This document shows, in pieces, positions 673 to 35,400 of a DNA stretch of 64,000 nucleotides. A program made the translations under genes and the position numbers. The notes beneath the pieces are model-generated. The model saw only the letters and a program-made list of their open reading frames with translations, made no database searches and had not been told where the DNA came from. The first letter of the stretch is position 1. The number at the start of each line of letters is the position of its first letter. The stretch covers positions 5,568,001 through 5,632,000 of the forward strand of contig OZ253462.1 in assembly GCA_965261395.1 (NCBI GenBank), read 5' to 3'. The DNA comes from Candidatus Latescibacterota bacterium. Lineage in GTDB: Bacteria; Latescibacterota; UBA2968; UBA8231.

Positions 673-1493
673 CGGCAGATAGAGCACCGAGGCCTTGAGC
701 AGCCGCCGCGCACTGGTCACCGAGCGCGAGCAGCTAAGCGCGAGACCGGAGGCGAGAAACAGCGCGCCCAACACCAGCGCCCCGACCAGATAGAACGGCC
801 CGGTGAGGCCCATGAACGAAGGCAACACCGAAAAAATCAGCAGCAGCACCAAGTAGCCCATGATCTGCCAGCAGGTGCTGTTCCCATCCGGCTCGACGAC
901 GGGTAGCATCTTGAAACCGCCGCGCCGATAGTCGTCGCGGAAGATCCAAGCAATGGCATAGAAGTGCGGGTGCTGCCAAGCGAAGAGAATGAGAAAGAGG
1001 ACCACGGCTCCCGGGTCAATCGAGCCGGTCGCCGCCGTCCAGCCCCCCACCGGCGGCAGGGCACCCGGCACGGCCCCCAGCGAGGTGTTGAGCCAATTTT
1101 GCCGCTTCATCGGCGTGTACACCACCACGTAGAGAAACGCGGAGAGCAGCGCCAAAAACGCCGTCAACAACCCAGTGGTAAAAAGCAGAAAAACACCCCG
1201 ACCAACACCAGCGCAAAACCCATCGCCAGAGCCGTACCCGGCTTGACGCGCCCGGCTGGCAAGGGCCGGTTGCGGGTGCGCTTCATCAAACCATCGACAT
1301 CGCGTTCCAGATACTGGTTGAGCACCGACGAGCCGCACGTGGTCAGACCTGTGCCGACGAGCAGGCAGCAAAAAAGCAGCGGCGCGTGGATGCCTTGCCC
1401 GCCCCAGAAAAACCCCAAGGCGGCCGTAACCAGCACCAAAAAGGCAATTCTCGGTTTAGTCAGTTCCCAGTAGTCGTGCCAAGTAGCAGTCAT
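634..1493 (-). pseudogene. cyoE: Protoheme IX farnesyltransferase (heme O synthase), split by a frameshift
   Basis: The N-half (from ATG 1493: LTKPRI...NQYLERDVDGLMKRTRNRPLPAG) and the C-half (YTPMKR...GAVPGALPPVGGW...WQHPHF...DYRRGGFKML) lie in different frames. They join at the T5 tract (plus-strand A5, 1189-1193), where one extra T restores the frame. Confidence 0.8.
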
Positions 1494-1591
1494 ATCTATC
1501 TCGTTCCGCGACAAAAATATAAAGCTGGATCTATTAACGGACAATAAGACGAGGCGAGTTGACGCTTGGTTCGGTGCCCCGCCTATCGTAA

Positions 1592-4050
<2,459 letters not shown>

Positions 4051-9522: not shown

Positions 9523-10413
9523 CTACTGGACAATTTGGGTGCCAATGCCCTGCCGGGTGTAAAACTCTAGTAACATCGCATGGGGCACGCGCCCGTCAAT
9601 GACGTGGGTTTTGCGCACGCCGGCTTTGACGGACTTGACACAGGCTTCGACTTTGGGAATCATCCCACCGCAGATCACGCCTTGGTCAACCAGCTCGCCC
9701 ACCTCAGAGACGCGCACGGTTGATAGCAGGGACGCATCGTCTTTGAGATCGCGCATAATGCCCTGCACATCCGTTAAAAAAACTAATTTCTCGGCGTGCA
9801 GGGCCGCAGCAATTTGCCCGGCCGCCGTATCGGCATTGACGTTGAAGCTCTCGCCCTCCGGGCCGCGACCAATCGGCGCAACCACCGGGATCATGCCCTT
9901 GCCTATCAAGTCCAACAAAGGCGCGGTATCCACGTATTCGACATCGCCGACATAGCCGATATCCATAGCGCCGCTGTCGGTCTGAGCCCAGTGCTTGCAC
10001 ACCTGCATGATCCCAGCGTCCTTGGCCGAGACGCCCACGGCCCGCCCGTCTAGTGCGCCAATTTCGCGGACTATCCGAGCGTTGACCTCGCCAAAGAGCA
10101 CATCCTCAACCACCCTCATCGTCGCCGCGTCCGTCACCCGCAGCCCATCTACGCGCTGGCTCTCAATGCCTAGTGCTTGCAGGCGGCGGTTGATAGCCGG
10201 ACCGCCGCCGTGGACCACGACTGGACAGATGCCAACCACCTGCATGAAGACGATATCCTTGTGTACGGTGTCCCCGCCACCCATGGTGCTGCCGCCGTAT
10301 TTGACGACCATCACTTTGCCGCGAAATTCCTGTAGGTAAGGCAACGCCTCGATCAGGGTCTCGGCTTTATCAATATGGGCCTGCAAGCCCTGTAAGACCT
10401 CGACGTCCATCAC
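9523..10413 (-). CDS. argB: Acetylglutamate kinase
   Basis: EALPYL, KYGG, VHGGGP, GLRVTD, NVNAD and GGMIPKV motifs. Confidence 0.95.
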   Translation of the reverse strand: MMDVEVLQGLQAHIDKAETLIEALPYLQEFRGKVMVVKYGGSTMGGGDTVHKDIVFMQVVGICPVVVHGGGPAINRRLQALGIESQRVDGLRVTDAATMRVVEDVLFGEVNARIVREIGALDGRAVGVSAKDAGIMQVCKHWAQTDSGAMDIGYVGDVEYVDTAPLLDLIGKGMIPVVAPIGRGPEGESFNVNADTAAGQIAAALHAEKLVFLTDVQGIMRDLKDDASLLSTVRVSEVGELVDQGVICGGMIPKVEACVKSVKAGVRKTHVIDGRVPHAMLLEFYTRQGIGTQIVQ

Positions 10414-10877
10414 TTATCCTCGCCGCACACCGCGTTGATCTTATCGACTAACTGCGCCGCGTCTTGTTCTGAACGGGAGACGATAAAGATCGTGTTTTCG
10501 CCGGCAATCGTGCCCGCGACCTCGGTCCAACCAATGCGATCAATGGCCTCGCAGACGCTTTGAGCGTGCCCCGACGAGGTCCGCACCAGCACCATGTTGA
10601 TTACCTGTTCGGTCTGGACCAAAAAGTCCTGCAGCTCTCTCTCTAGGATGTGCAGGTCGCGCAGCGTAGCCCCGGCTTCGGGCAGCGTATAGCGAAAACC
10701 CCCATCGGCCTGCGGCACCCGCACCACGCCTATTTCGCGCAAGTCTTTCGACAAGGTCGATTGGCTGACCTCGATGCCTTGTTGCTGGAGGACCTCGGCC
10801 AATTTCTCGTGTGTATCAATGACTCTTCTATAGAGCAGTTCCCGTATGCGGGTCTGCCGCATCTGTTTGTTACGCAT
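10410..10877 (-). CDS. argR: Arginine repressor
   Basis: SQSTLSKDL winged HTH and C-terminal GTIAGENTI motif. Confidence 0.93.
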   Translation of the reverse strand: MRNKQMRQTRIRELLYRRVIDTHEKLAEVLQQQGIEVSQSTLSKDLREIGVVRVPQADGGFRYTLPEAGATLRDLHILERELQDFLVQTEQVINMVLVRTSSGHAQSVCEAIDRIGWTEVAGTIAGENTIFIVSRSEQDAAQLVDKINAVCGEDK

Positions 10878-10939
10878 AATTTTTATTATTTAATTGAAAT
10901 AAAAATTTCTAAATTAGAGTACCGCCGAGACCGTGTCAA
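10876..10939 (-). promoter_or_regulatory. argR operon promoter with tandem ARG-box-like palindromes
   Basis: Minus-strand TTGACA (10939-10934)-17 bp-TAATTT (10916-10911). Palindromes GAAAT-AAAA-ATTTC (10896-10909) and ATAAT-TTTT-ATTAT (10876-10889) are 20 bp apart. Confidence 0.7.
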
Positions 10940-10955
10940 GCAAAGCGTAGCCGCG

Positions 10956-11738
10956 CTACGCTCGGCCCGAAGCCATCTGCTCTTGCAGGCGCAGCTTGAG
11001 TTGCCGGCGATCCAGCCCCCGCCAAAAGACCCCGCCAATGGCCAGCGAAATGGTGCTGTTCTCCTCGGAAACGACGATGACTACCGCATCCGATTCCTGC
11101 GATAGACCCAATGCCGCCCGATGGCGGGTTCCCAGCCGCTGGTCCTCGATCTCTTCCGCCAAAGGCAAGGTGCAGCGGGCCGCCACCAAGCTCTCGCCTT
11201 GGATAACGACGGCTCGGTCGTGCAGCGGGGTGCGTGGGCTGAAGATCGTGGCTAGCAAATCGCCCGACACCTCCGAGTTCAGGGGCACCCCAGTCTCAAT
11301 GACCGGCCTGATCTGGACTTGGCGCACCAGCACGATCAGCGCCCCGTACCCCAAGTCGGCCAAGCGCCCGACTCCACCGACGACCTCGTCAATGACCCGG
11401 GACGGCTCGGCCTTGTAAAACCAGCGGAACGCCGGGGTCTGCCCCAAGACTTGGAGGAGCCGCCGTAACTCGGGCTGGAAGAGGATGACTAGTAGGATTA
11501 ACAAGATGGAGCGCGCCTGCTCCAACAGCCAAGACAGGGCGTTCATATTGAGCCAAGGCGCGGCCAAAGCCACGATCACCATTAGCAGTAGCCCGGCGAC
11601 CATGTGCGCGGCTCGGGTGTCCTTGATTAGGGAGAGCAAGCGAAAAAAGATAAAGGCCACCAGCAGGATATCCACCAAGGAGGTCAGCGAGACGGGCAGA
11701 AAGCCAAAGAGGTGGAACAGGACCGGGTCTTTTAGCAC
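10956..11738 (-). CDS. cdaA: Diadenylate cyclase CdaA (DGA motif altered to DRA)
   Basis: Three TM helices, FQPELRR, TPLHDRA and GTRHRAALG; folP-cdaA synteny. Confidence 0.9.
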   Translation of the reverse strand: MLKDPVLFHLFGFLPVSLTSLVDILLVAFIFFRLLSLIKDTRAAHMVAGLLLMVIVALAAPWLNMNALSWLLEQARSILLILLVILFQPELRRLLQVLGQTPAFRWFYKAEPSRVIDEVVGGVGRLADLGYGALIVLVRQVQIRPVIETGVPLNSEVSGDLLATIFSPRTPLHDRAVVIQGESLVAARCTLPLAEEIEDQRLGTRHRAALGLSQESDAVVIVVSEENSTISLAIGGVFWRGLDRRQLKLRLQEQMASGRA

Positions 11739-22121: not shown

Positions 22122-23026
22122 AACGCATATACACAGTCGCGGAAATGCAGGATCAGTCCGACATTTGGCGCAGCGCGGACCTGTGCATCGGGCTGGTGCC
22201 GACGATGGGTTTTTTGCACGAGGGGCATCTCAGCTTGGTCGATCACAGCCTCGAAGCGGCTGACCGCACGGTCGTCAGCATCTTCGTCAACCCACTGCAA
22301 TTCGGGCCGCAAGAAGATTTCGCCATCTATCCGCGCGACATGGAGCGCGATCTCGACCTGCTATCCCACCGAGGGGTCGATGCGGTCTTCCATCCCCAAA
22401 CAGCGGAATTCTATCCCCCCGATTTCTCGACCTTCGTCGAAGTCGAAGAGCTAACCAAGGGCCTGTGCGGCCCCTTCCGCCCCGGGCACTTCCGCGGCGT
22501 CGTCACCGTAGTGACCAAGCTATTCACCGCCGTCAAACCACACCTAGCCGTCTTCGGCCAGAAAGACTACCAGCAGATAGCCGTCATTCGTCGGCTAGTG
22601 CGCGATTTGAACTTGGATTTGCGCGTCGAGGTTGCCCCTACCGTGCGCGAAGCAGACGGCTTAGCCATGAGTTCGCGCAACGTCCTTCTCAGCGCAGAAG
22701 AACGGCAGCGTGCATCGGCACTCTATGAAGCACTCACAATGGGCCGAGAACGGATCGAAAGGGGAGCAAGCGACGCCAGCCAAATCATCGCCGAGATGCG
22801 GGCGCACATCGAACGCGCACTCGACCCGCGCATTGACTACATTTCGATCGCCCACCCGGACACCCTCAAAGAAGTGGCCCATATCACCGGCCCGGTCGTC
22901 ATCGCCCTCGCCGTGCGCCTGTCCAACGTCCGGCTAATCGACAACATCGTCGCCGCGCCGGCCACTAGGCAGCCCACTCTTATAAAGGAGAACAAAACTC
23001 AATGGCTTCCAATATCGCCAAGGTAG
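22118..23026 (+). CDS. panC: Pantoate-beta-alanine ligase
   Basis: PTMGFLHEGH, SIFVNPLQF, RPGHF, FGQKDYQQ, AMSSRN and RLIDN motifs. Confidence 0.96.
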   Translation: MKRIYTVAEMQDQSDIWRSADLCIGLVPTMGFLHEGHLSLVDHSLEAADRTVVSIFVNPLQFGPQEDFAIYPRDMERDLDLLSHRGVDAVFHPQTAEFYPPDFSTFVEVEELTKGLCGPFRPGHFRGVVTVVTKLFTAVKPHLAVFGQKDYQQIAVIRRLVRDLNLDLRVEVAPTVREADGLAMSSRNVLLSAEERQRASALYEALTMGRERIERGASDASQIIAEMRAHIERALDPRIDYISIAHPDTLKEVAHITGPVVIALAVRLSNVRLIDNIVAAPATRQPTLIKENKTQWLPISPR

Positions 23027-23685
23027 ACAAGCGATTCTTGTGCCCTGGACCGCAGCCAAACGGAATCCAAGCCGCTCCCGACGGCCTGTGGGTCATCGAC
23101 CAAGCCGATAACAAAGTGTACAAGTTGGATTATGAAACCGGCGAGACCTTGTTCGCAGCCCAGACCGATACAGTCCACTCTAGCGGCATTACCGTGGGAG
23201 ATGGGTATCTGTGGATCGCCTCTACCTATGAGCTCAAAATCGCCAAACTAGAACTGGCAACGGGCCGCACCATCGCCAAATACGACTCGCCCGGTGCCGG
23301 CATCACAGCGCCTCGGGAGGGTATTGCAGACGCACGCACCACCGGCTCTCACGGCCTAGAATGGAAAGACGGCAAGCTGTATGTGGCCACGCCGCCTTCC
23401 CAAATGGTCCACGTCATGGGCCCCGACACCTGGGAAGAAGAACACCAATTTCGCACCCCCGGCTTTCGCAACCACGGCATCGCTTGGGGGCCGGATGGCA
23501 GGCTGTGGGTGGCCGACACCTCGGCCGGCACCGTCAGTCTGCTCGACACCAAGGATGGGCGGGTCTACGACGTCATTCGGGTGCCCGCCCCCGATGAGGT
23601 ACACGGATTGACCGCGCACCAAGGCGTCTTGTGGTACTGCGACGCCCACACCCGCGACATTGGCATCCTCGCATTGGAGGACTGA
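23002..23685 (+). CDS. Beta-propeller (NHL/Vgb/glutaminyl-cyclase-like) protein
   Basis: Repeated HG(L/I)xW..G.LW(V/I)AD blades; AGGAG RBS. Confidence 0.65.
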   Translation: MASNIAKVDKRFLCPGPQPNGIQAAPDGLWVIDQADNKVYKLDYETGETLFAAQTDTVHSSGITVGDGYLWIASTYELKIAKLELATGRTIAKYDSPGAGITAPREGIADARTTGSHGLEWKDGKLYVATPPSQMVHVMGPDTWEEEHQFRTPGFRNHGIAWGPDGRLWVADTSAGTVSLLDTKDGRVYDVIRVPAPDEVHGLTAHQGVLWYCDAHTRDIGILALED

Positions 23686-23739
23686 GTTTGCGGAGTATGG
23701 TAAAACTCTGATCGGTTCATTACCTATTTTTTAGCAGCA

Positions 23740-25401
23740 CTAGTTATCGTTGCGGGCCAAGTCGTCCCTAACTGCTTCTATTTTTTCCCGCAACTTGGCT
23801 AGAGCTTCAACGATATCTGGCCTTCTGCGAACCGGTCGTTCAAGCTCTTTCTGCCATTGCTCAAACTGCCGGAGGATGGTGTCGAAATGTCCCGAATTGC
23901 GCTTCAATACTTCATCTATAACCGTCAGCGTCGCACCCTTGCGGCTCGCATTAAGGCAGCAAACGGTCAGCATAAGGTCATCGCCTCCTAGGAGGTCGAG
24001 ATCCTGAGCGAGGCGTTCACTGTAGCCGGCATCGTGCGCCACGTTAGGTTCGGATGTATCTCCCTGTAAGACCGAATCGTCGAACACCATTGGATGCCGG
24101 GCGAATAACCGTCCGATGTGCGTCTCTATGCGCTCCGCCAAATGTGTCAACGATATTGTCAGCCAGCATTCCCGGGCTCCGTCGAACAATTCACGCCACA
24201 ATACTTTCGCTTTATCCGGTCGGCCATGCGATGGCGAAAGCAGCCAGTCGATACCCGATATTCCGATAGCTAGGAGGAATAAGGAAGGAGCAAGTGCGTC
24301 AGCATCATCCGTTTGGTTCCAGTGCTGGGCACGGCGTCGTTGCTCAATCAGCCGATTCCAGGATTGCCGCCATCGTTCGGCGGGTTCCTCTACATGCGCT
24401 AGCAGGTAACCGCAGCAGTTCACTGGCAGGTCACTGGTGCCGGAGTTCAGAAGGGATTCGACTTCGAAGGCTGGATCTCGCGACGCTAGTAAGGCATCGA
24501 GATAGTCAAGGAGCTTCTGCCCATCCTCGGTGGATGCATTGCCGATCATATGATCCATCAAAGCCATCATGGAAAGTGCTCCAAGGCGAGGCGGAGTTTT
24601 CTCATCGTCACATAACTCGGACCGCGCTGGCGCAAGTTCGCCAACGGCTGGAATCTCTGGAAAATCCACCAAGGCAGCGATTGTTCCGGCGGTAAGGCCC
24701 GCCTTGTAAAGACCGAGAGTAATCCATTCGATCAGATCATCCTGCCAGAGATATTCATGAGCCCGATCTCCAGCACGATCGCGACGCGCACGATCCAGAC
24801 GTTCGTCCTCGACTTTCATGAGCAGCCACTGAGGGCCGAGGAATTTGCCGTCCGGTCGGGCCATGACGACACGGCCAAGTTCTTCAAACCATGACGCAAA
24901 GATTTTCTTCATCTCCTCCCGGACTTCTGAGTCGTCATCGTCGAAGTTTTTCTCTTGATGCAATTCCTGCCATCGATCACGGCAATGCTCCTCGGCACTT
25001 TTCAGCACGAGTAAGGCCAACAAGCGGCCATTCCAAGATTGACCGTTCTCACTGCATCTCGGTGCTGCCTCCAGAGTGGCCGCGATCTCGTCACGATCAT
25101 GCAGGATCGTGTTGTGCCTGAGAACTTGGCGTATGGGATGTGGGAAATCGAAACGGTCTAATCGACCTAGGATAGCAGCCTTGTCTGTCGGTAGAAAGCC
25201 TGGGAGAAAGTCTAGTACATCATAATGGACTGGAAACGGATCTCCTTGAGCTTGCCACAACTCATTGATCGACGGACTCGAACGCCATGCCTCAACAGAC
25301 GCATTGAAGGCATCTCGGTCCCCCGCATAGGTCCCGATCCCCGGATTGGCATTAATGTCCCTGATCTTAGCCTCCAGATCCGATAGTATTGAATCACGCA
25401 T
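23740..25401 (-). CDS. Hypothetical protein, third gene of the low-GC cassette
   Basis: Long ORF (about 553 aa from ATG 25401, which overlaps the upstream stop and has GGAG upstream); no motif recognised; helical-looking composition. Confidence 0.75.
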   Translation of the reverse strand: MRDSILSDLEAKIRDINANPGIGTYAGDRDAFNASVEAWRSSPSINELWQAQGDPFPVHYDVLDFLPGFLPTDKAAILGRLDRFDFPHPIRQVLRHNTILHDRDEIAATLEAAPRCSENGQSWNGRLLALLVLKSAEEHCRDRWQELHQEKNFDDDDSEVREEMKKIFASWFEELGRVVMARPDGKFLGPQWLLMKVEDERLDRARRDRAGDRAHEYLWQDDLIEWITLGLYKAGLTAGTIAALVDFPEIPAVGELAPARSELCDDEKTPPRLGALSMMALMDHMIGNASTEDGQKLLDYLDALLASRDPAFEVESLLNSGTSDLPVNCCGYLLAHVEEPAERWRQSWNRLIEQRRRAQHWNQTDDADALAPSLFLLAIGISGIDWLLSPSHGRPDKAKVLWRELFDGARECWLTISLTHLAERIETHIGRLFARHPMVFDDSVLQGDTSEPNVAHDAGYSERLAQDLDLLGGDDLMLTVCCLNASRKGATLTVIDEVLKRNSGHFDTILRQFEQWQKELERPVRRRPDIVEALAKLREKIEAVRDDLARNDN

Positions 25402-26032
25402 GACATGATCTCCAACATTCATCGAAAAACTTCATCGCCTTTGTTCTAGTTACGGACCACGGTCCGCTCGCAGCGGTCAATCCCGGATGCCCTCCGCCGA
25501 CAGTTGAACCGAAATGCCAGAGGCCTCCGTCAACGATGGCGAAGCGATCGTGCAGAAACGGGAAAATGTGTTTGTCGAGGGTCGCCCTCCACAGAACCTC
25601 CATCTGAGGGCGATTTCGGTACAGGTTGCAATACTGCGTAAGCTCTTTTCTCTTTCGTTCCCTCTCCTTCCTCTCGATGTCGCCTCGACCAGTAAGCAGG
25701 CGCACGTCGCTTGCCTGACTGTTCGATATTGCGTCTTCTATGGCATGGAAGCCAACTATGTCAAAATGCAGATCTAGCACCAGAATACAAACTTCCGCTT
25801 TCATCACCGCCTCTTCGAATTCAACCAATTTAAGAACCGTGCCGTTCCTAGGTGCCTCATATCGTTCGTGGACATCCTGCCTGTTAGGGAAAAAGGGGGT
25901 GTCTTGATTTTCGATGCCCTTCCCATATTTGATCGATGGCCATAACAGTTGCGGCTTAACCGATGGCTCAGGAAGCTCCGGCACCAGAAATTCATCATGG
26001 ACATCCGTGGGCGGTCGTAGTATAGCGCTCAT
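25394..26032 (-). CDS. PLD-like (HDRF variant) single-domain protein
   Basis: ILVLDLHF...VRLLT...LHDRFAIVDGGLWHFGSTVG matches the HxK/R-x4-D-x6-GS PLD-fold pattern; ATGA coupling to the upstream gene. Confidence 0.7.
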   Translation of the reverse strand: MSAILRPPTDVHDEFLVPELPEPSVKPQLLWPSIKYGKGIENQDTPFFPNRQDVHERYEAPRNGTVLKLVEFEEAVMKAEVCILVLDLHFDIVGFHAIEDAISNSQASDVRLLTGRGDIERKERERKRKELTQYCNLYRNRPQMEVLWRATLDKHIFPFLHDRFAIVDGGLWHFGSTVGGGHPGLTAASGPWSVTRTKAMKFFDECWRSCHA

Positions 26033-27605
26033 CGGTAGCGGATAAATCCCATCAGACGGTTAACCCATACTCGGAGAGTCTTTTTCCAGGATGCCTCCGG
26101 TACCGGTCGATTGGATAACCAGTCGGAAAGGGAGGGTGCATCGCCCCAGAAGGCTTCGAGGCACACGATAACCGGTTCTGGATCGGGCAGCCTGACGATC
26201 ATTCCTGCGCGTTCGCCTATCGTGTGTAGGGAGTTCCCGGAAAACCAAACGGTCCCGTCAACAACCAAGAATCGGTCATGCACAGGAGGCGGGTCGCCTG
26301 TGAGGATGCGAACCTCTGGCTTTGTAGGATAGGACTCAAAGGTGCGGTCAAGGATAGCTAACAGTTGAGATCCAGAGTTGGCGTCAATAGCCAAGGTCGA
26401 AGTCAGAATCCGCAAATCTATGTCAGGCCGGGAAACTGCATGACCAAAGGCGAGCAGTTCTCGGCCGGCGAAATAAGGATCGACGATGAGAACCGTGTCT
26501 CGAGCACTACCTATTTTCTGTCGTATATATTGCGCTGCCTCGCTTGGTACATTGTGAAACCATTGCTGGTCGTAGTCTTTCGCAGCCTGACGGCGTGCCC
26601 GCTGATTCTCCGCCTCGGTAAGCCGCGAGACGATGTCAGCATCCTCCAATGCGTCGCCGATGGTTATCTTCCTTTCCTCTTCAAATTCATCCGCTTTGTA
26701 CTTGTACCCGGGCCGCTTGCGACCATCAACAGGGACATGAACCATCTTTTCGCGTCGGTGCAATTCCATTGTCATATGAATGGCCCTAAGGACTGGCTGA
26801 GGTTCGTGCCAGACCAGCAGGCCATATTTGGGATGCGTGATCGACCTCCCTTCCTTGTAGACTTTAGCCAAAAAGTCGAGAACCGCGATCGCATCATTAC
26901 CAAACTTGTGGATAAGCGTCATCCGTCCACGCAGACGTTCATTGACAATCTCCAAACGCAATCCGTCGAGGCATTGACCTTGTCGGGCCACGAGTTTATA
27001 TGCCACGGTTTCGGCCGCACCCTTCCTTGCCTGCTCAAAGTGGGATTTCTCGACTGACCGGAACAAGGGATTCGGAGCGACTAGACATATTGCGCCTTGA
27101 TAATCATAATATGCCTCGACGATATCGAAATTGAGCCACTCCTCCAACTTTGTCCGGTTTTTGTCCATTCCGATAATCGCGCTGACCTCTGGAGATAGGA
27201 CATCTTTCGGGAACAAGAAATGAGTGCGCGAATCCTGCATCCAGTCAGGTGCGAAAGCTAATTCGTTCGACGTGACAAAGTGAGGCCATGGTGGTTCCGG
27301 CTCGAACGGGCCACCTTCCAACTTCGCACCATCTCCCGATGTTGAGTGATTCGGATCGAGTGGAAGAACGATGTTGCCGTCGGCCATCTTCCGGTACCAG
27401 TCGATTGCATCCTCGACAGGCAGGACGAAACGTCGATAGTAGAGATATTTGCGGCCTTTGTTCCCGACGCGAAAGCCTTTCGGTGGGCAGCCTATGGCGT
27501 CGGGAAACTCATTCGGTCGCAATTCAACCATGCCGAACAGCAAATACCGAACTTGATCATCGCGGAACCAAGCAAGATGTATGATTGCCTGACGATATCC
27601 AGTGA

Positions 27606-28535
27606 GAAGCCGTCTGAAAACCCTCTGATGTAGCCGAATTTGAAAGGGCGTACTCATCGAGCCATATTCAGGTTTCACCACAAAATCTGAACAGAAAGGC
27701 TTGTATAATGAGTACGCCGCGTAGGCAATATGCCACCGATCTAACCGATGGACAATGGCAGCGGATCGAACCGTTGCTGCCCGCGCCGCGCTGGCGGCTT
27801 CACGGTCCGGGTCGGCCGCCGCGGGATCGACGCCAAATCGTCAACGGCCTTTTATATTTGAACAAGACGGGGTGTCCTTGGGCTTTGTTGCCTGCTTGTT
27901 TTGGGCCGTGGAAAACGGGGTATGATTACTTTCGTCGCTGGAGCCTGCAAGGGGTCTGGCCGCCGGTGTTGGATCGGTTGACCAAGCGGGAACGCCGCCA
28001 GAGCGGCCGGGCGGCGATGCCGTCGGCTGGCTGCGTCGATAGTCAGACGATTAAGACCGCAACGCATGGTAAAACAACCGGGTATGACGCCGGTAAAAAG
28101 ATCAAAGGCCGCAAACGGCATTTGTTGGTGGACACGTCGGGTTTGCTTCGACAGGTGGTGGTCACCGCCGCCGATGTCGATGATCGAGAGGGTTTGAAGC
28201 AGGTGTTGACCCGCTTGAAGGCCGCCGGAGTGGCTCGGTTACGCAAGCTGTGGGTTGATGGCGGCTACCAAGGCGAGGCCATCCGAACGTGGGTGGCCAA
28301 CCAAAAAAAGACGCACAAAATAGACTTGGAAGTCGTCGCCAAACAAGGCTCCGGATTTACCCTAGTTAAACGCCGGTGGGTCGTCGAGCGCACCTTGGCG
28401 TGGTTGATGAATTTTCGCCGACATGCGAGAGATTATGAGGTCTTGACCCGCCATAGTGAAGCCTTGATCCAGATTGCCATGATCCACTTGCTACTTAAAC
28501 GAATCAAATGAAAATTAGAGTTTTCAGACGGCTTC
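27606..28535 (+). mobile_element. IS5-family insertion sequence (IS1031-like), 930 bp
   Basis: Perfect 16-bp terminal IRs GAAGCCGTCTGAAAAC / GTTTTCAGACGGCTTC, TGA/TTA flanks, single transposase. Confidence 0.92.
27708..28511 (+). CDS. IS5-family transposase
   Basis: YATDLTDGQW N-terminus, VDSQTIK, GYDAGKKIKGRKRH, WVDGGY and RWVVERT DDE motifs. Confidence 0.95.
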   Translation: MSTPRRQYATDLTDGQWQRIEPLLPAPRWRLHGPGRPPRDRRQIVNGLLYLNKTGCPWALLPACFGPWKTGYDYFRRWSLQGVWPPVLDRLTKRERRQSGRAAMPSAGCVDSQTIKTATHGKTTGYDAGKKIKGRKRHLLVDTSGLLRQVVVTAADVDDREGLKQVLTRLKAAGVARLRKLWVDGGYQGEAIRTWVANQKKTHKIDLEVVAKQGSGFTLVKRRWVVERTLAWLMNFRRHARDYEVLTRHSEALIQIAMIHLLLKRIK

Positions 28536-28585
28536 TTAGATCCATGACCGTCTCCTCGCGGATTTGTATCTAAAAATTCAGTCTT

Positions 28586-31751: not shown

Positions 31752-32379
31752 CTACCTCCTCTGCATCACGACAATGCGGTTCGAATTAGTTCCGCGCTTG
31801 TTGTTGTCAACGCCCCACATATTCGAGGTCTTGGTAAACGTCTGTTCGTTGATTACGACGCAGACCGGTTTCCACGCCGTCTCTTGCGCAACCTCGGCAA
31901 CCACGCGATCGAGCAACAGCGATCCCCGCCGGATTTCGCCCACCTCAAATGCAAACACCCCACCAGGGTGCGCTATCCTCGGGCAGGGCCGGCGGGTCCA
32001 ACCGCGCCTCCACGAGAACGCGGGACAGGGGATTGACGTCGTTGCCGATCACGTCCCGGCCGAGCAAGACCGCTTCGAGCAATGTCGTCCCACGCCCCAT
32101 AAACGGGTCGAACACCACGTCGCCGGGGTCCGTCAGCCGCTCGATGAAAAAGCGCGGCAACTGCGGCTTAAAACACGCCCGATAGGAAACCTCGTGCAGC
32201 GAGTGCGCGGCGCGTTGCTTGGACGTCCAGAACTCATTGGCGAATACGGGAATGCCGTCGCATTCTTCAACGACCGTCTCCTTGTCGTAGCGCCGCCATT
32301 GTTCAAGCTCGCGTTTGAACTCGTCGAGCACCAGACAACCCTTACCAATAGAAGGGAACTGGTGTTGCAATTGTCGCAA
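31752..32379 (-). pseudogene. DNA amino-methyltransferase remnant with internal deletion
   Basis: N-part YRACFKPQLPRFFI...DPFMGRGTT...GNDVNP (SAM motif I) is joined out of frame near 31970 to a C-part (HPGGVFAFEVGE...GTNSNRIV); no S/DPPY catalytic motif is present. Confidence 0.7.
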
Positions 32380-32405
32380 TGTGCGCCCCTAACAATCTGC
32401 GTCCC

Positions 32406-35400
32406 CTACAAATACCCGAACAACACCGTAAAATAAGACTTCCACCGCCCCTTATCTTGCACCTCGTCAATCCCATACGCCACATCCACCTGCACCCGCG
32501 TCGGCACGCTGTAATAAGAAATCAAATCAAAGCGCAACTGCCCCCCCACATCCCGCAGTGGGCCGTCGCGTCCATACCGTTCGTTCCACTCGCCTATGTT
32601 TCGGTCCCAAGCCTTGCCCATACTGGTGTACACTGCGCCATATACTTTGTCGAAATACAACTGCGCAACGCGCTTGCCCAAATTCGGCAGCAGAGGAAAG
32701 CGCAGCGTCGCCGTGCCCATCAGAGCCTTGCGCCCCTCGATGCTATAAAAAGTATAGCCCTTCATAAAGTTGAGGCCGCCGAGGCGGTAGTCGAAGAAAT
32801 CGCCGACCCGCGACGTGTCGTTCACCGCGTCGTTGTCGATCCAGCCGCCGTACAGCCGCAGGCCCAAGCGGGTATTGCCGGGCATGGCCATGTATTCCTT
32901 CCAATCGACGGTAAACTGATTGTAAAAGAGCTTGATGTAGTTCTCGTCGATAAAGGACGCCTGCTCGTTAAAGCCGTCGATAAAATAGTTGAACATCCGG
33001 TCGTAGCGCGCGTAGAGCTGGCGGCCCACAGGGCTTATATCGCGGTCCCGCCGCCGCGCAATCATCTCCATCCGATAGGTCAGCCCCAAGCCAAAGCCAT
33101 TGAGATAGGTATAACCAAAGGGCCTTTGCCGCTGGCGCTCAAAGCCGAGGCCGCCGTCTCGGCGCGGCACAAAAGCCTCCCATTGGACGCTGGCATCGTA
33201 GCGTTCGTACGTGGCTGAGGCCGTCAGCTCCACATGGCGACCCAATTTACCGCGCACCCCCGCGCTGAGCTGGCTCAAGTTGAAGTTGATGGCGTTGACA
33301 ATGCCCGCCCGCGCCTCCGAGCTATCGCCGCGAGCCGAGCGCCGGCGCTGGTTGAATAGCTCTAAAAAGAAGGTGGGACGGAATCCCTTGAACTCGTATA
33401 TGGCGAACAGTTCGCGGTCGGCATTGGCCGGCGCAATGGCACCCCCGGCGAATATGCTCTGGCGGTTGAGCACATCGCCAGAGGTGAGGTACGCGCCCGC
33501 CTTGAAATTCCCCTCGTCCATGAACAGCCTCGGCAGGATTCCGGTCTTGAGGAAGTCGATGCCATACGCTTGGGGCGTGCTCGGCAAGGCGGGGGCCGAC
33601 GTGCCACGCCAATCCAGCGGCATGTCTTGGGAAAACCACGCCTCTTCAGCCGCCACCGGCGTCCCCTCGTCCTGCAACTGGCGAATCTCAAAGCCGGCCG
33701 ACGTATAAGCTGCAAAGACGACCTCGCCCTCCGAGCCGACCGATGGGCTGAACGCACCGCCGATAGTATTAGTTATCTGCCGCAGCGCGAGCGTTTCCAA
33801 GTTGAGGGCATAAATATTGAAAATGCCGCTGAAATCCGACGCAAAGACGATCTCCGTGCCGTCCGCGCTCCACGCTGGGTCCCGGTCCGTGCCAGGCGTG
33901 GCAATGTCGAATACCCCTTCGTCGAGCAAGGGCGTTGCAGCGGCGGCGTCCGCGTCTAGTTGCACCACGGCGATGTCGCGCTGTCCCTCGCGCGAGATCG
34001 CAAACGCCAGCTTGCGTCCGTCGGGCGAAAAGCGCGGCGTGTAGAGCTGGGTGCCATCCGCAAAGTGGGTTAGATAGCGCAGCCCCGTGCCGTCGGCCCG
34101 CATCATCGCCAAATTGTTGCTGGTGTCCTTGTTTTGCACGAAGACGATCCATTCGCCATCGGGCGAATAGGTCGGGTACAGTGCGCGCAGCCCGCGCGTC
34201 AGCCGCTTGACGCGCGGCGTCTCCGGTGCCGTGCCGCTAACCATAGCCGGCACCAACCACAGCATATTGCGCCAAAAACTAGGGCCAGCGGCAGCGGAAT
34301 TCCACTCGTAGATATCCGCCTGCCGCGAACCGTATTTGTCGGCCCGGTCGATGCGCGAAAAGAGCAGCTTGCGCCCGTCCGGCGACCAATCCACGGTCGA
34401 AGCCGCCGCTGGGAAGACTGCGACTTCCTCCTCGCCCGTAGCGAGGTCGCGCACGATCAAGCCGTGCGGGTAGTGGTGCCGCTTGCGCGTTGACAGATAC
34501 GCCAATTTCTCGCCGTTGGGTGCCAGCCGCGGCCGCAGATTGGAAAAGCCGACATCCACGATCCGCTCGCCCTCGCGCAGCGGCCCCAACGCCGCCACCT
34601 GCGCCCGATAGCCCTGCCGCAGGGACTCGATCCACTCGCCGTATAGCTCGTCCGCGCTCTTGCCCAAGACCTTTTTGCACGCCCCGTCAATGGCGAGCGC
34701 GTGCCACTGCGACGAGGCCCGGTACAGCGCGGCGATTTTTTCTTCACCGTACATCTCGGCGATATAGCGCACCAAGCCAAAGCCGTGGTCGTACACGTAT
34801 TCGTTGCCAAAGCCCTGCTTGCCAAAGACGCCCATCTGGTCGAAGGATAGCTGCTCGTCCGCCAGCACCAAGGAGCGGAGCACCATGTCGCGGTTGGCAT
34901 CCCAGCGGTCGTGAGTCGTAGTCGCAGTCCCGTACTGGGCCGCGCCCTCGGCCAGCCACATGGGCACCACCGTGCCCATCACTGGATAGGAAGCGATGAC
35001 ATCCGGATAGCCGATGAGAATGTCCGGTCGGTTTTTCTCTCGTTGGTAGCCAAAGTACTGCAAGTAGAGCGCGGGGACGCGCTGTACGCCTTTGCGCGCA
35101 GCACCGAGCGAAACGATGTGGGCAAATTCGTGGGTTATTACGTTGCGCAGCCAGTCTGAACTGCCGCGCAAATCGAAGTCGTGGTCGAGCGACGTGGCCC
35201 AGATCTCAATGGTGTCTTGATAGAAAAAAGCCGCGCCATTGGCGTAATCGTCGTGGTCCTTGAGCACGATCCGCACGCGCCCGTCGGGCGCGTACCCATA
35301 CAGCTCGGTAATGGGCGCGTACGCGGCTTCGGCAATGCGCGCCGCCCGCGCCGCCGCCCCATCCAGCCCCTCGTGATAGAAGATGCGGAAGTGCTCGGTC

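Follow-up and report, generated by a model that had tools for sequence, protein, structure and literature searches.

A low-GC cluster of three genes lodged between two core genes raises the question of whether it encodes an anti-phage system and, if so, how that system relates to those already known. We refer to genes 1, 2 and 3 as A, B and C, and to the operon as A-B-C; the window is the whole 64,000-nucleotide stretch of DNA analyzed, and the coordinates of its features are collected in Table 1. In public records, two of the three genes are labelled only as hypothetical proteins. A-B-C is a conserved, horizontally mobile three-gene operon, and we put a probability of about 60% on its being a multigene relative of Juno (VPA1262). 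By our assessment, the operon probably defends against phages.

Table 1. Features of the island and its borders (positions in the window).
Feature	Position	Strand	Description
Left flank, beta-propeller gene	ends 23685	+	Convergent core gene
Accessory island	23688-28584		4,897 bp, low GC; three overlapping minus-strand genes and an IS5-type element
Gene 3 (C), 553 aa from MRD start	23740-25401	-	All-helical solenoid, short form
Alternative upstream ATG of gene 3	25422	-	Gives a gene 3 of 560 aa
Overlap of gene 2 stop and gene 3 start	25394-25401	-	ATGCGTGA
Gene 2 (B), 212 aa	25394-26032	-	Stand-alone PLD-like domain preceded by a conserved N-terminal extension of ~55 residues
Gene 2 HxR-x4-D-x6-GS motif	25505-25552	-	HDRFAIVDGGLWHFGS; translation exactly as predicted
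Overlap of gene 1 stop and gene 2 start	26029-26032	-	Shared ATGA
Gene 1 (A) ORF, 550 codons, native part ~528	26029-27681	-	25 leading codons from the IS
Gene 1 body, 525 codons + stop	26029-27606	-	VPA1262 N-terminal-domain protein
Gene 1 HxR-x4-D-x6-G motif	26230-26280	-	HDRFLVVDGTVWFSGNS; translation exactly as predicted
IS5-family insertion sequence, 936 bp	27605-28540	+	~16-bp terminal inverted repeats (GAAGCCGTCTGAAAAC)
IS-derived 25-codon extension of gene 1 ORF	27607-27681	-	GTG at 27681, ATG at 27657; non-native
IS transposase, 267 aa	27708-28511	+	DDE_Tnp_1 4.8e-31; DUF4096 7.2e-28
Stranded native gene 1 start (ATG GA...)	28541-28545	-	Severed from gene body by the IS
Right flank, peptidase gene	ends 28586	-	Convergent core gene

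The GC content of the island is 0.51-0.56, compared with 0.59-0.67 in its flanks. The co-orientation of the three minus-strand genes, their coupling, their lower GC content and their position between convergent core genes are all present as originally predicted, and the reading frames of genes 1, 2 and 3 are intact in the window copy. In 14 of the 18 other genomes of the same genus that were searched, the flanking genes lie only 20-790 bp apart and the cassette is absent. Contigs from the public runs X2 and X6 represent an empty site as well, joining position 23687 straight to 28585 and skipping 4897 bp. The island is an insertion between core genes and was horizontally acquired.

Homologs of the three genes keep the same arrangement elsewhere. 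We anchored 33 loci on B, drawn from Pseudomonadota, Binatota and Spirochaetota. Thirty of them have A upstream and 32 have C downstream; two of the three loci missing A are cut by a contig end. This fixed order of three conserved families in 30-32 of 33 independent loci is more than chance; the three-gene synteny at issue holds. The family is also broad: it comprises 265 clusters of B homologs (~205-225 aa, no Pfam family assigned to any) and 574 representative clusters of C (typically 650-720 aa), and its members occur in several phyla and on plasmids, in viral contigs and in a Tn7-like element.

The surroundings of these loci bear on what the operon is for. A conjugative IncF plasmid from Klebsiella variicola carries the trio, as do three IMG/VR contigs, and at locus L021 a Tn7-like element has it between its TnsB and TniQ genes. 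The trio adjoins a Type IIG restriction-modification (RM) gene at locus L002 and a Type I S subunit together with Septu PtuA at locus L029, and neighbors of trio loci also match JetD, PDC-S01, PDC-S02 and PDC-S37. Defense-related or mobile contexts are thus seen in several loci. Given the plasmid, the Tn7-like element, the resolvase and IS neighbors and the many housekeeping genes among the flanks (for example chorismate synthase, SHMT and GroEL), one might argue that the trio is not an immune system but serves its carrier elements, through maintenance, addiction or an accessory role in transposition, or that it performs a niche metabolic function of the PLD superfamily. We consider this very unlikely: the 33 loci have no integrase or transposase in common, of the 132 genomes in the class only 3 have the trio, which speaks against a core metabolic role, the sole tested relative of A is the anti-phage protein Juno, and RM, Septu, Wadjet and candidate systems adjoin the trio in several loci. 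Tn7-like elements and such small islands commonly carry defense cargo.

The relationship to Juno rests on protein A. The resemblance of gene 1 to the VPA1262 family, which the original prediction had suggested, proved correct: A passes the NCBIfam model of the VPA1262 N-terminal domain (NF040700) with 204.9 bits (2e-60; cut-off 80), and the match spans profile positions 3-471 of 478 and A residues 80-507. In the numbering of the 550-codon ORF, a beta-rich N-terminal part is followed by an Ig-like domain (~204-299) and a C-terminal PLD-like domain (~366-528). A PLD fold had been proposed for this last domain and is indeed predicted by the AF2 model of A (pLDDT 85.3), in which residues 366-528 align to SauUSI with a Z score of 13.2 (2.7 Å over 146 residues), to Nuc and NucT with 12.9, to NgoAVII with 10.9 and to BfiI with 10.2. 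Foldseek returned 67 matches for A at E<=0.001, including NucT (2.4e-6), Nuc, Zucchini and PLD3/4. The VPA1262 family has been named Juno, a single-protein anti-phage system, in a preprint of August 2026, which reports phage protection for two full-length Juno proteins (bioRxiv 10.64898/2026.08.01.741415); therefore, the trio is a relative of a known kind.

Gene 2 was likewise predicted to be a stand-alone domain of the PLD-like type found in gene 1, and the comparisons bear this out. hhalign matches B to the C-terminal domain of A at 97.2% (E 4.1e-11), and the gene 2 HMM matches all 23 gene 1 proteins. Judged from these sequence comparisons, B is a paralogue of A's PLD-like domain, and homology to that domain would place B in the PLD fold. 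The prediction of one HxR-type motif per protein was exact for both genes, and the motifs are strongly conserved. All 23 A homologs compared share the residues H, D, R, F, D, W, G and S without exception, and the 35 B sequences all keep H161, D162, R163, F164, D168, W172, G175 and further positions.

Whether these motifs are catalytic is a separate matter. They do not match the canonical H-x-K-x4-D-x6-G-S-x-N, as Lys is replaced by Arg in 23/23 A and 35/35 B sequences and the tail reads G-N-S in A and G-S-T in B. The His, Asp and Gly-Ser/Asn residues of both proteins nevertheless stand at exact HKD spacing (0, +7, +14, +15), and the motif is, on its residue pattern, a variant HKD motif and not an absent one. 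Pfam PLDc_2 scores A at 21.4 bits (E 2.4e-4), below its gathering score of 27, and does not match B. Non-catalytic PLD folds score against A about as well as nucleases do (Z 12.6 for FAM83B, 13.1 for BJ-TSA-9, 11.2 for TrmB and 9.6 for MITD1; Foldseek 2.3e-6 for TrmBL2). Given the Lys-to-Arg change in every member and the high scores of these non-catalytic folds, catalysis is not assured. The HxR PLD-like domains could instead be non-enzymatic binding modules like those of TrmB, FAM83 or MITD1; the system, whether or not it is defensive, would then act by other means, for example with A and B sensing a ligand or nucleic acid and C as effector or scaffold. The Arg found throughout the A, B and Juno sequences and the sub-threshold PLDc_2 score agree with this reading as well, but we regard it as distinctly unlikely, since the key residues are invariant at the HKD spacing, Arg can on chemical grounds provide the positive charge of Lys, and no catalytic domain other than the PLD-like one is visible in A, B or C.

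Protein C matched no known family, and PADLOC-DB v2.0.0 yielded 0 families at E<=1. The AF2 model of a full-length C relative is all alpha (pLDDT 91.7, pTM 0.90). The window protein lacks a ~165-residue N-terminal helical subdomain that is present in most relatives; this short form occurs in 14 clusters and is a well-attested natural variant rather than damage. Structural alignment of C with the sensor region of Avs4 gave a Z score of 9.7 over 222 residues, where the chance level for helical repeats is ~13 according to the tool's note, and importins and designed repeats score against C about as well as Avs4.

The window copy itself is interrupted. Because the IS lies within the start of gene 1, the 550-codon ORF opens with 25 codons of IS sequence, and gene 1 homologs align only from codon 26 onward. 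The element sits just after codon 2, with the boundary at 27605/27606. In genome G310, which lacks the IS at the homologous site, the uninterrupted gene begins ATG GAT TTC ACT GAA TAT (MDFTEY...), whereas the window copy reads ATG GAT and then the IS end. By separating A from its promoter and start codon, the insertion makes it doubtful that A is expressed, and this probably holds for the entire operon. The original prediction hinted at the IS when it spoke of an IS-free cassette but gave no site for the insertion, which we now locate at the start of gene 1.

There is, accordingly, almost an even chance that the window cassette is an inactivated and decaying relic, whatever the function of its family. 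Its native ATG is stranded 0.93 kb from the gene body. The IS is present in at least nine copies with 100% identity in its own genome, and its identity to at least eight other copies indicates that the insertion is recent. A scan for sigma-70-like promoters revealed no outward promoter facing A from the IS end (5 sites versus 3.2 expected), although host promoters may depart from the sigma-70 consensus. The other two trio copies of the class are damaged too: in G310, B is deleted down to an out-of-frame remnant of its start and end, and in G331, B is truncated, stopping after residue 107. On the other hand, all three window frames are open, translation could begin at an in-frame GTG or ATG within the IS end and yield a protein missing only ~3-5 native residues, and IS ends often carry outward promoters. 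Furthermore, dN/dS between the window and G310 comes to 0.28 in A and 0.36 in C (0.05-0.21 for the flanking core genes, with similar dS), which reflects past purifying selection.

At the level of the family, the preferred reading of A-B-C as a multigene relative of Juno suggests a working model. A brings a Juno-type N-terminal module including the PLD-fold domain with its invariant H-D-R-[FY], and B brings a second PLD-like half-site. Nuc and BfiI build one active site from two chains. By analogy with one-motif PLD nucleases, which dimerise, we tentatively propose that the single half-sites of A and B may pair into one phosphodiesterase or nuclease center, a possibility that we hold to be less likely than not. 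C, an alpha-solenoid of ~650-720 aa in its usual form, might control this A-B center as a scaffold or sensor, which is slightly more doubtful; the original prediction had gene 3 or, alternatively, the N-terminus of gene 1 as the putative gate. In a bolder version, which we think rather unlikely, A-B-C would constitute a distinct and widespread immune family, in which two different Arg-variant PLD half-sites from adjacent genes make up an obligately heteromeric nuclease, with an alpha-solenoid sensor as its check. In this version, the N-terminal helical subdomain of C, lost independently at least four times with the remainder kept under selection, could act in regulation or be a target of phages, and its removal would retune triggering. 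If this were true, Juno-type defense would come in a split, modular form governed by a new principle of control.

Our findings indicate that the front module of Juno also occurs in a split, three-protein setting, where it is joined by a further PLD-like half-site and a large helical protein. The trio thus offers natural separation-of-function material for how Juno-type systems sense and kill, and it opens comparisons of A alone with A+B and A+B+C, and of long with short C. The invariant His-Asp-Arg at HKD spacing also raises the question of whether PLD nucleases can work with Arg where the catalytic Lys normally stands. In this genome the copy is interrupted by the IS, which lowers its biological weight here.

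Among known systems, STAND/Avs-type proteins resemble C in that their sensor arms are likewise long alpha-solenoids, a comparison of how they work and not a claim of homology; C lacks their NTPase domain. The one-motif PLD nucleases (Nuc, NucT, BfiI, NgoAVII R, the nuclease domain of SauUSI and Zucchini) have their fold in common with A (Z 10.2-13.2), and each of their chains has one HKD-type motif, spaced as in A and B. Profile searches of PDB sequences matched no PLD entry. Unlike these nucleases, A and B have Arg in place of the motif Lys, A has a large beta-rich N-terminal region, the two halves of an A-B pair would be supplied by different genes, and the trio has no methyltransferase or ATPase partner.

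The trio matched no named system in PADLOC-DB v2.0.0, as the original prediction required, and literature searches found no paper describing an A-B-C trio. Two profiles of the PADLOC candidate PDC-S05 match the PLD-like part of A (E 2.5e-8 and 7.7e-7), while B reaches only E 0.061 and C gives nothing. We rejected an assignment to PDC-S05, a single-gene model of ~285-306 positions, of which A matches only positions 169-273 of 285 (176-290 of 306). One PDC-S05 representative protected E. coli and is described with a Virulence_RhuM domain (bioRxiv 10.1101/2024.09.26.614923), which is absent from the trio.

The closest comparison is with Juno itself. The claim that the cassette is undescribed stands in part: the VPA1262 family of A already bears the name Juno, but the trio is not Juno itself and is unnamed in PADLOC v2. 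An N-terminal module is common to both, as hhalign against an alignment of 27 Juno proteins gave 96.4% (E 1.3e-9; A 178-513, Juno 185-542) over ~340 aligned columns that include the PLD-like domain. FDPYF and HDRY are present in the two Juno proteins examined, and DPYF and HDR[FY] are shared with A; unlike A, the Juno motif has no Asp at +7 (HDRYVLVM, HDRYLLVS). A is not Juno proper, as it scores 15.3 bits with the full-length model NF040699 (1026 positions; cut-off 325). Trio homologs from five other genomes score 22.9-51.1 bits, none above that cut-off, and B and C have no match to it. Juno is one protein of ~1,030-1,130 aa, whereas the trio divides into an A of ~530 aa and two further genes. 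The C-terminal ~500 residues of Juno have no detectable likeness to B or C: the alignment with B is confined to the PLD part of Juno, that with C reaches 2.2% in hhalign, and the PLD part is the sole match by blastp. Juno resides in mobile islands rich in defense genes (bioRxiv 10.64898/2026.08.01.741415), and the trio, in several of its loci, likewise lies in mobile islands with defense genes.

Genes A, B and C, the three genes of the candidate cassette (the trio), occupy overlapping minus-strand reading frames, with the overlap being ATGA between A and B and ATGCGTGA between B and C. The original prediction had described three co-oriented, translationally coupled genes of lower GC content inserted between convergent core genes, and its observation as a whole is confirmed. 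The island, comprising the trio and an IS5-type insertion sequence (IS) at the start of gene A, has a GC content of 0.51-0.56 versus 0.59-0.67 in its flanks; of the convergent flanking genes, one encodes a beta-propeller protein and the other a peptidase that has a T9SS-type tail; and both motifs quoted for A and B translate exactly as given. The accompanying interpretation was supported in part.

Positions of the trio and its insertion sequence in the window
Feature	Position	Strand	Description
Gene A	26029-27681	-	ORF
Gene B	25394-26032	-	ORF, 212 aa
Gene C	23740-25401	-	ORF, 553 aa counted from the MRD start
IS, IS5-family	27605-28540		936 bp; 267-aa DDE transposase upstream of gene A

In 14 of 18 other same-genus genomes, a DNA search of 30 relatives found the two flanks separated by just 20-790 bp and free of any insert; one genome, G310, of the same class, has a cassette at the same site. 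Contigs of two public runs join position 23687 to 28585, skipping 4,897 bp. Together with the empty site in relatives, these contigs therefore delimit the island to 23688-28584, and the cassette is an insertion between its flanks; no direct repeats were resolved at the island ends. Gene A is present in only three of the 132 genomes of the class, namely the window's own genome, G310 and a further one, G331. The beta-propeller gene to the left of the island (23002-23685) is variably placed among relatives. In nine of the 14 same-genus genomes whose flanks meet without the cassette, panC directly adjoins the peptidase gene, and seven of these nine carry a ~72%-identical propeller gene elsewhere. 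Genes seem to have been gained and lost repeatedly at this propeller/peptidase intergenic spot. Elsewhere in the window, a 144-aa minus-strand ORF (31945-32379) matches the N6_N4 DNA methylase family only C-terminally (positions 125-212 of 221, E 1.9e-14) and is likely to be a fragment of a methyltransferase; GC drops locally to 0.55-0.58 at 32250-33000.

The likeness of gene A to the VPA1262-like family, originally suggested, was borne out by NCBIfam NF040700 (VPA1262 N-terminal domain), which gene A passed at 204.9 bits (cut-off 80), while it fell below the full-family model NF040699 (15.3 bits vs 325). Pfam PLDc_2 was sub-threshold (21.4 vs 27), and PADLOC returned only a partial PDC-S05 match restricted to the phospholipase-D (PLD) part. 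The PLD fold foreseen for the C-terminal domain was also recovered: in an AlphaFold2 model built with 23 homologues (mean pLDDT 85.3), residues 366-528 matched SauUSI (Z 13.2), Nuc and NucT (12.9), NgoAVII (10.9) and BfiI (10.2), and Foldseek gave 67 matches to the model at E<=0.001. For residues 204-299 the model shows a generic Ig/FN3-like sandwich (Z 7-8). Because the structure-match lists were taken up by PLD and Ig-like domains, residues 26-200 were hardly sampled; an ESM Atlas look-up of residues 26-345 pointed to VPA1262 and PLD proteins in the 0.76-0.83 range, as leads only.

Gene B has 265 homologues of ~205-225 aa, and no Pfam family was detected in any of them. The gene B HMM matched the C-terminal domain of all 23 gene A proteins (E 3.6e-14 to 3e-3), and hhalign aligned B with A at 97.2% (E 4.1e-11). 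These profile comparisons show gene B to be a paralogue of the C-terminal PLD-like domain of gene A, and with the structural matches they establish the domain identities in the pair. PDB sequence searches with the B and A profiles retrieved no PLD entry, only chance-level matches to GTPase Der (E 0.011) and CCAR2 (E 1.3). Both proteins carry His, Asp and Gly-Ser/Asn at the exact spacing of HKD, the PLD catalytic motif, with Arg at the Lys position, and this pattern is invariant across 23/23 A and 35/35 B sequences.

Nuc and BfiI dimerise to build one active centre from half-sites. By analogy with these enzymes, the half-sites of A and B might come together in a single phosphodiesterase or nuclease centre, a proposal we rate as less likely than not. 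Complex prediction for gene A residues 345-550 with gene B, both supplied as alignments, scored 0.29 against a mark of 0.32, without controls, and so weighs neither way on binding. The PLD-like domains might alternatively serve in binding only, a role for which room is left by the Arg in place of Lys and by how well non-catalytic PLD folds score against the gene A model.

Gene C, originally described as an unknown partner, matched no Pfam, NCBIfam or PADLOC family; a Pfam TetR_C_13 hit at 17.6 bits (threshold 27) was taken as noise. The gene C family converges within two HMM iterations with zero decoy matches. At E<=1e-3 it comprises 574 representative clusters, whose members are typically 650-720 aa long, and the best 150 of the 574 include no fused forms. 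A full-length relative modeled from 81 sequences is confidently predicted to be all-helical (pLDDT 91.7, pTM 0.90). Foldseek against the PDB gave zero matches to this fold at E<=0.001, and the best Z in a wide VIA search was 10.9, among generic solenoids, which falls short of the ~13 that the tool marks as noise for helical folds. The modeled fold thus matches generic solenoids only, naming no family and excluding none. An ESM Atlas look-up returned leads only, in the 0.76-0.83 range.

Compared with most relatives, gene C of the window is without ~165 residues after its third codon, corresponding to the first eight helices of the full-length model. We considered a lesion private to the window and ruled it out because an identical junction is common to 14 protein clusters (544-562 aa, 64-100% identity), six of which lie on contigs equal in length to ones with a full-length gene B match. 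On a 44-sequence tree, at least four in-frame losses of this N-terminal helical subdomain are needed, and 0/200 bootstrap trees allowed a single change. The short-form clade to which the window copy belongs has radiated into 10 clusters. Two short-form groups have an identical junction, for which recombination could also account; it could lower the change count. Gene C of G331 has a junction of its own (locus L050, 4075-5739).

Scanning one genome per species with a gene B alignment yielded 33 loci (designated L plus number), from Pseudomonadota (Pseudomonas, Paraburkholderia, Chromobacterium, Janthinobacterium, Psychrobacter, Pantoea, Comamonas and others), Binatota and Spirochaetota. An HMM search of all ORFs >=100 aa placed gene A directly upstream of B in 30 of the 33, two of the three exceptions being cut by a contig end, and gene C directly downstream in 32, with L005 holding the only lone gene B. 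Twenty-two of the loci served to build the HMMs; the remaining 11 are independent detections. The three-gene synteny put forward for checking was thus upheld, and the coupling and co-inheritance of the genes are established. A few copies look degraded: L028 (943-5176) has its gene A in two separate ORFs and a gene C truncated to 297 aa, and L033 (6531-6977) has a gene B of only 148 aa.

The mobility of the trio is evident from its carriers, which include a conjugative IncF plasmid of Klebsiella variicola (L057, NZ_CP092633.1) and three IMG/VR contigs, two with the complete trio and one cut after gene B. On the plasmid, RefSeq names A 'VPA1262 family N-terminal domain-containing protein' and both B and C 'hypothetical protein'. 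The plasmid trio is preceded by genes for a 'TrlF family AAA-like ATPase' and a hypothetical protein of 1,069 aa (L057, 1-3835) and followed by genes for a recombinase, an IS6 transposase and a toxin-antitoxin pair of the DUF1778-GNAT type; these surroundings are a mosaic accessory region. In L021 (Rheinheimera sp. A13L), a TnsB-like ORF lies 5' of the trio (1169-3286) and a TniQ-like ORF 3' (9785-11287), so a Tn7-like transposon appears to carry the trio as cargo.

Among 103 neighboring ORFs, obtained by crude longest-ORF calling of two upstream and two downstream at 28 loci, PADLOC families included Type IIG RM, Septu PtuA and PtuB, Wadjet JetD, RtcR, PDC-S01, PDC-S02 and PDC-S37, and Pfam families included resolvases (two), IS66 and TnsE_C as well as housekeeping enzymes. 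Of ten neighbors scanned singly, five had no match. Directly upstream of the trio in L029 lie genes for a Type I specificity subunit and Septu PtuA, and a neighbor in L025 is weakly Avs1b-like. The picture is mixed, that of a small mobile cassette often but not always located among defence genes. On the grounds of its solenoid architecture and constant presence, C might be a scaffold or sensor, a role we rate as less likely than not.

The IS transposase matches DDE_Tnp_1 (4.8e-31) and DUF4096 (7.2e-28). At least nine IS copies at 100% identity occupy its own 6.5-Mb genome (the window and eight further places), a lower bound because nine were scored among 102 first-look candidates, so further copies may exist. 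Copies in same-genus genomes are 85-93% identical, and the element looks currently active. Whereas the uninterrupted gene A of G310 begins ATG GAT TTC ACT GAA TAT (MDFTEYRQAV), in the window ATG GAT abuts the IS end and gene A resumes with ACT GGA TAT CGT (TGYRQAI), which places the break in gene A after codon 2. Its native promoter and start lie 0.93 kb away, and the 550-codon ORF opens with 25 codons of IS sequence, within which an in-frame GTG or ATG could start a nearly full-length protein. A search with a sigma-70-like consensus, which may not be that of this organism, found no outward-facing promoter-like site, and promoter and terminator scans gave counts at shuffle level. No clear target-site duplication was resolved, and the IS-free joint 27605/28541 was absent from public-run contigs, which end at the repeat. 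The window copy of the trio is probably impaired by the IS.

All three copies in the class carry lesions, with gene B damaged in the other two. G310 has a full-length gene C and an out-of-frame remnant of the start and end of gene B (L049, 4930-5054), and G331 retains gene B residues 1-107 before running out of frame into gene C (L050, 5460-6074). Between the window and G310, dN/dS was 0.28 for A and 0.36 for C versus 0.05-0.21 for four flanking genes, and dS was similar throughout (0.34-0.49), as expected if the genes descended together and were formerly under purifying selection.

The VPA1262 family, a single-protein anti-phage system, has been renamed Juno according to a preprint (bioRxiv 10.64898/2026.08.01.741415). 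A description of the trio was not found among papers on VPA1262/Juno, PDC-S05 and PLD-like nucleases, in whose supplements such operons could appear. Given the Juno relationship and the genomic context, we estimate a probability of roughly two in three that the trio defends against phages. We compared it with two full-length Juno genes (1,127 and 1,027 codons) and 25 further proteins. Gene A aligned over Juno residues 185-542 (hhalign 96.4%, E 1.3e-9) and gene B over the same PLD part (90.6%), whereas gene C showed no likeness (2.2%); blastp and HMM searches found nothing outside the PLD part. DPYF and HDRY motifs are present in Juno, but the +7 Asp is absent. A split Juno is rejected for genes B and C. 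Since A aligns with the front of Juno, B only with its PLD part and C not at all, only the front module is detectably common. Judged by these alignments, the trio is neither a member of the Juno family nor a simple split of it, but a three-gene relative.
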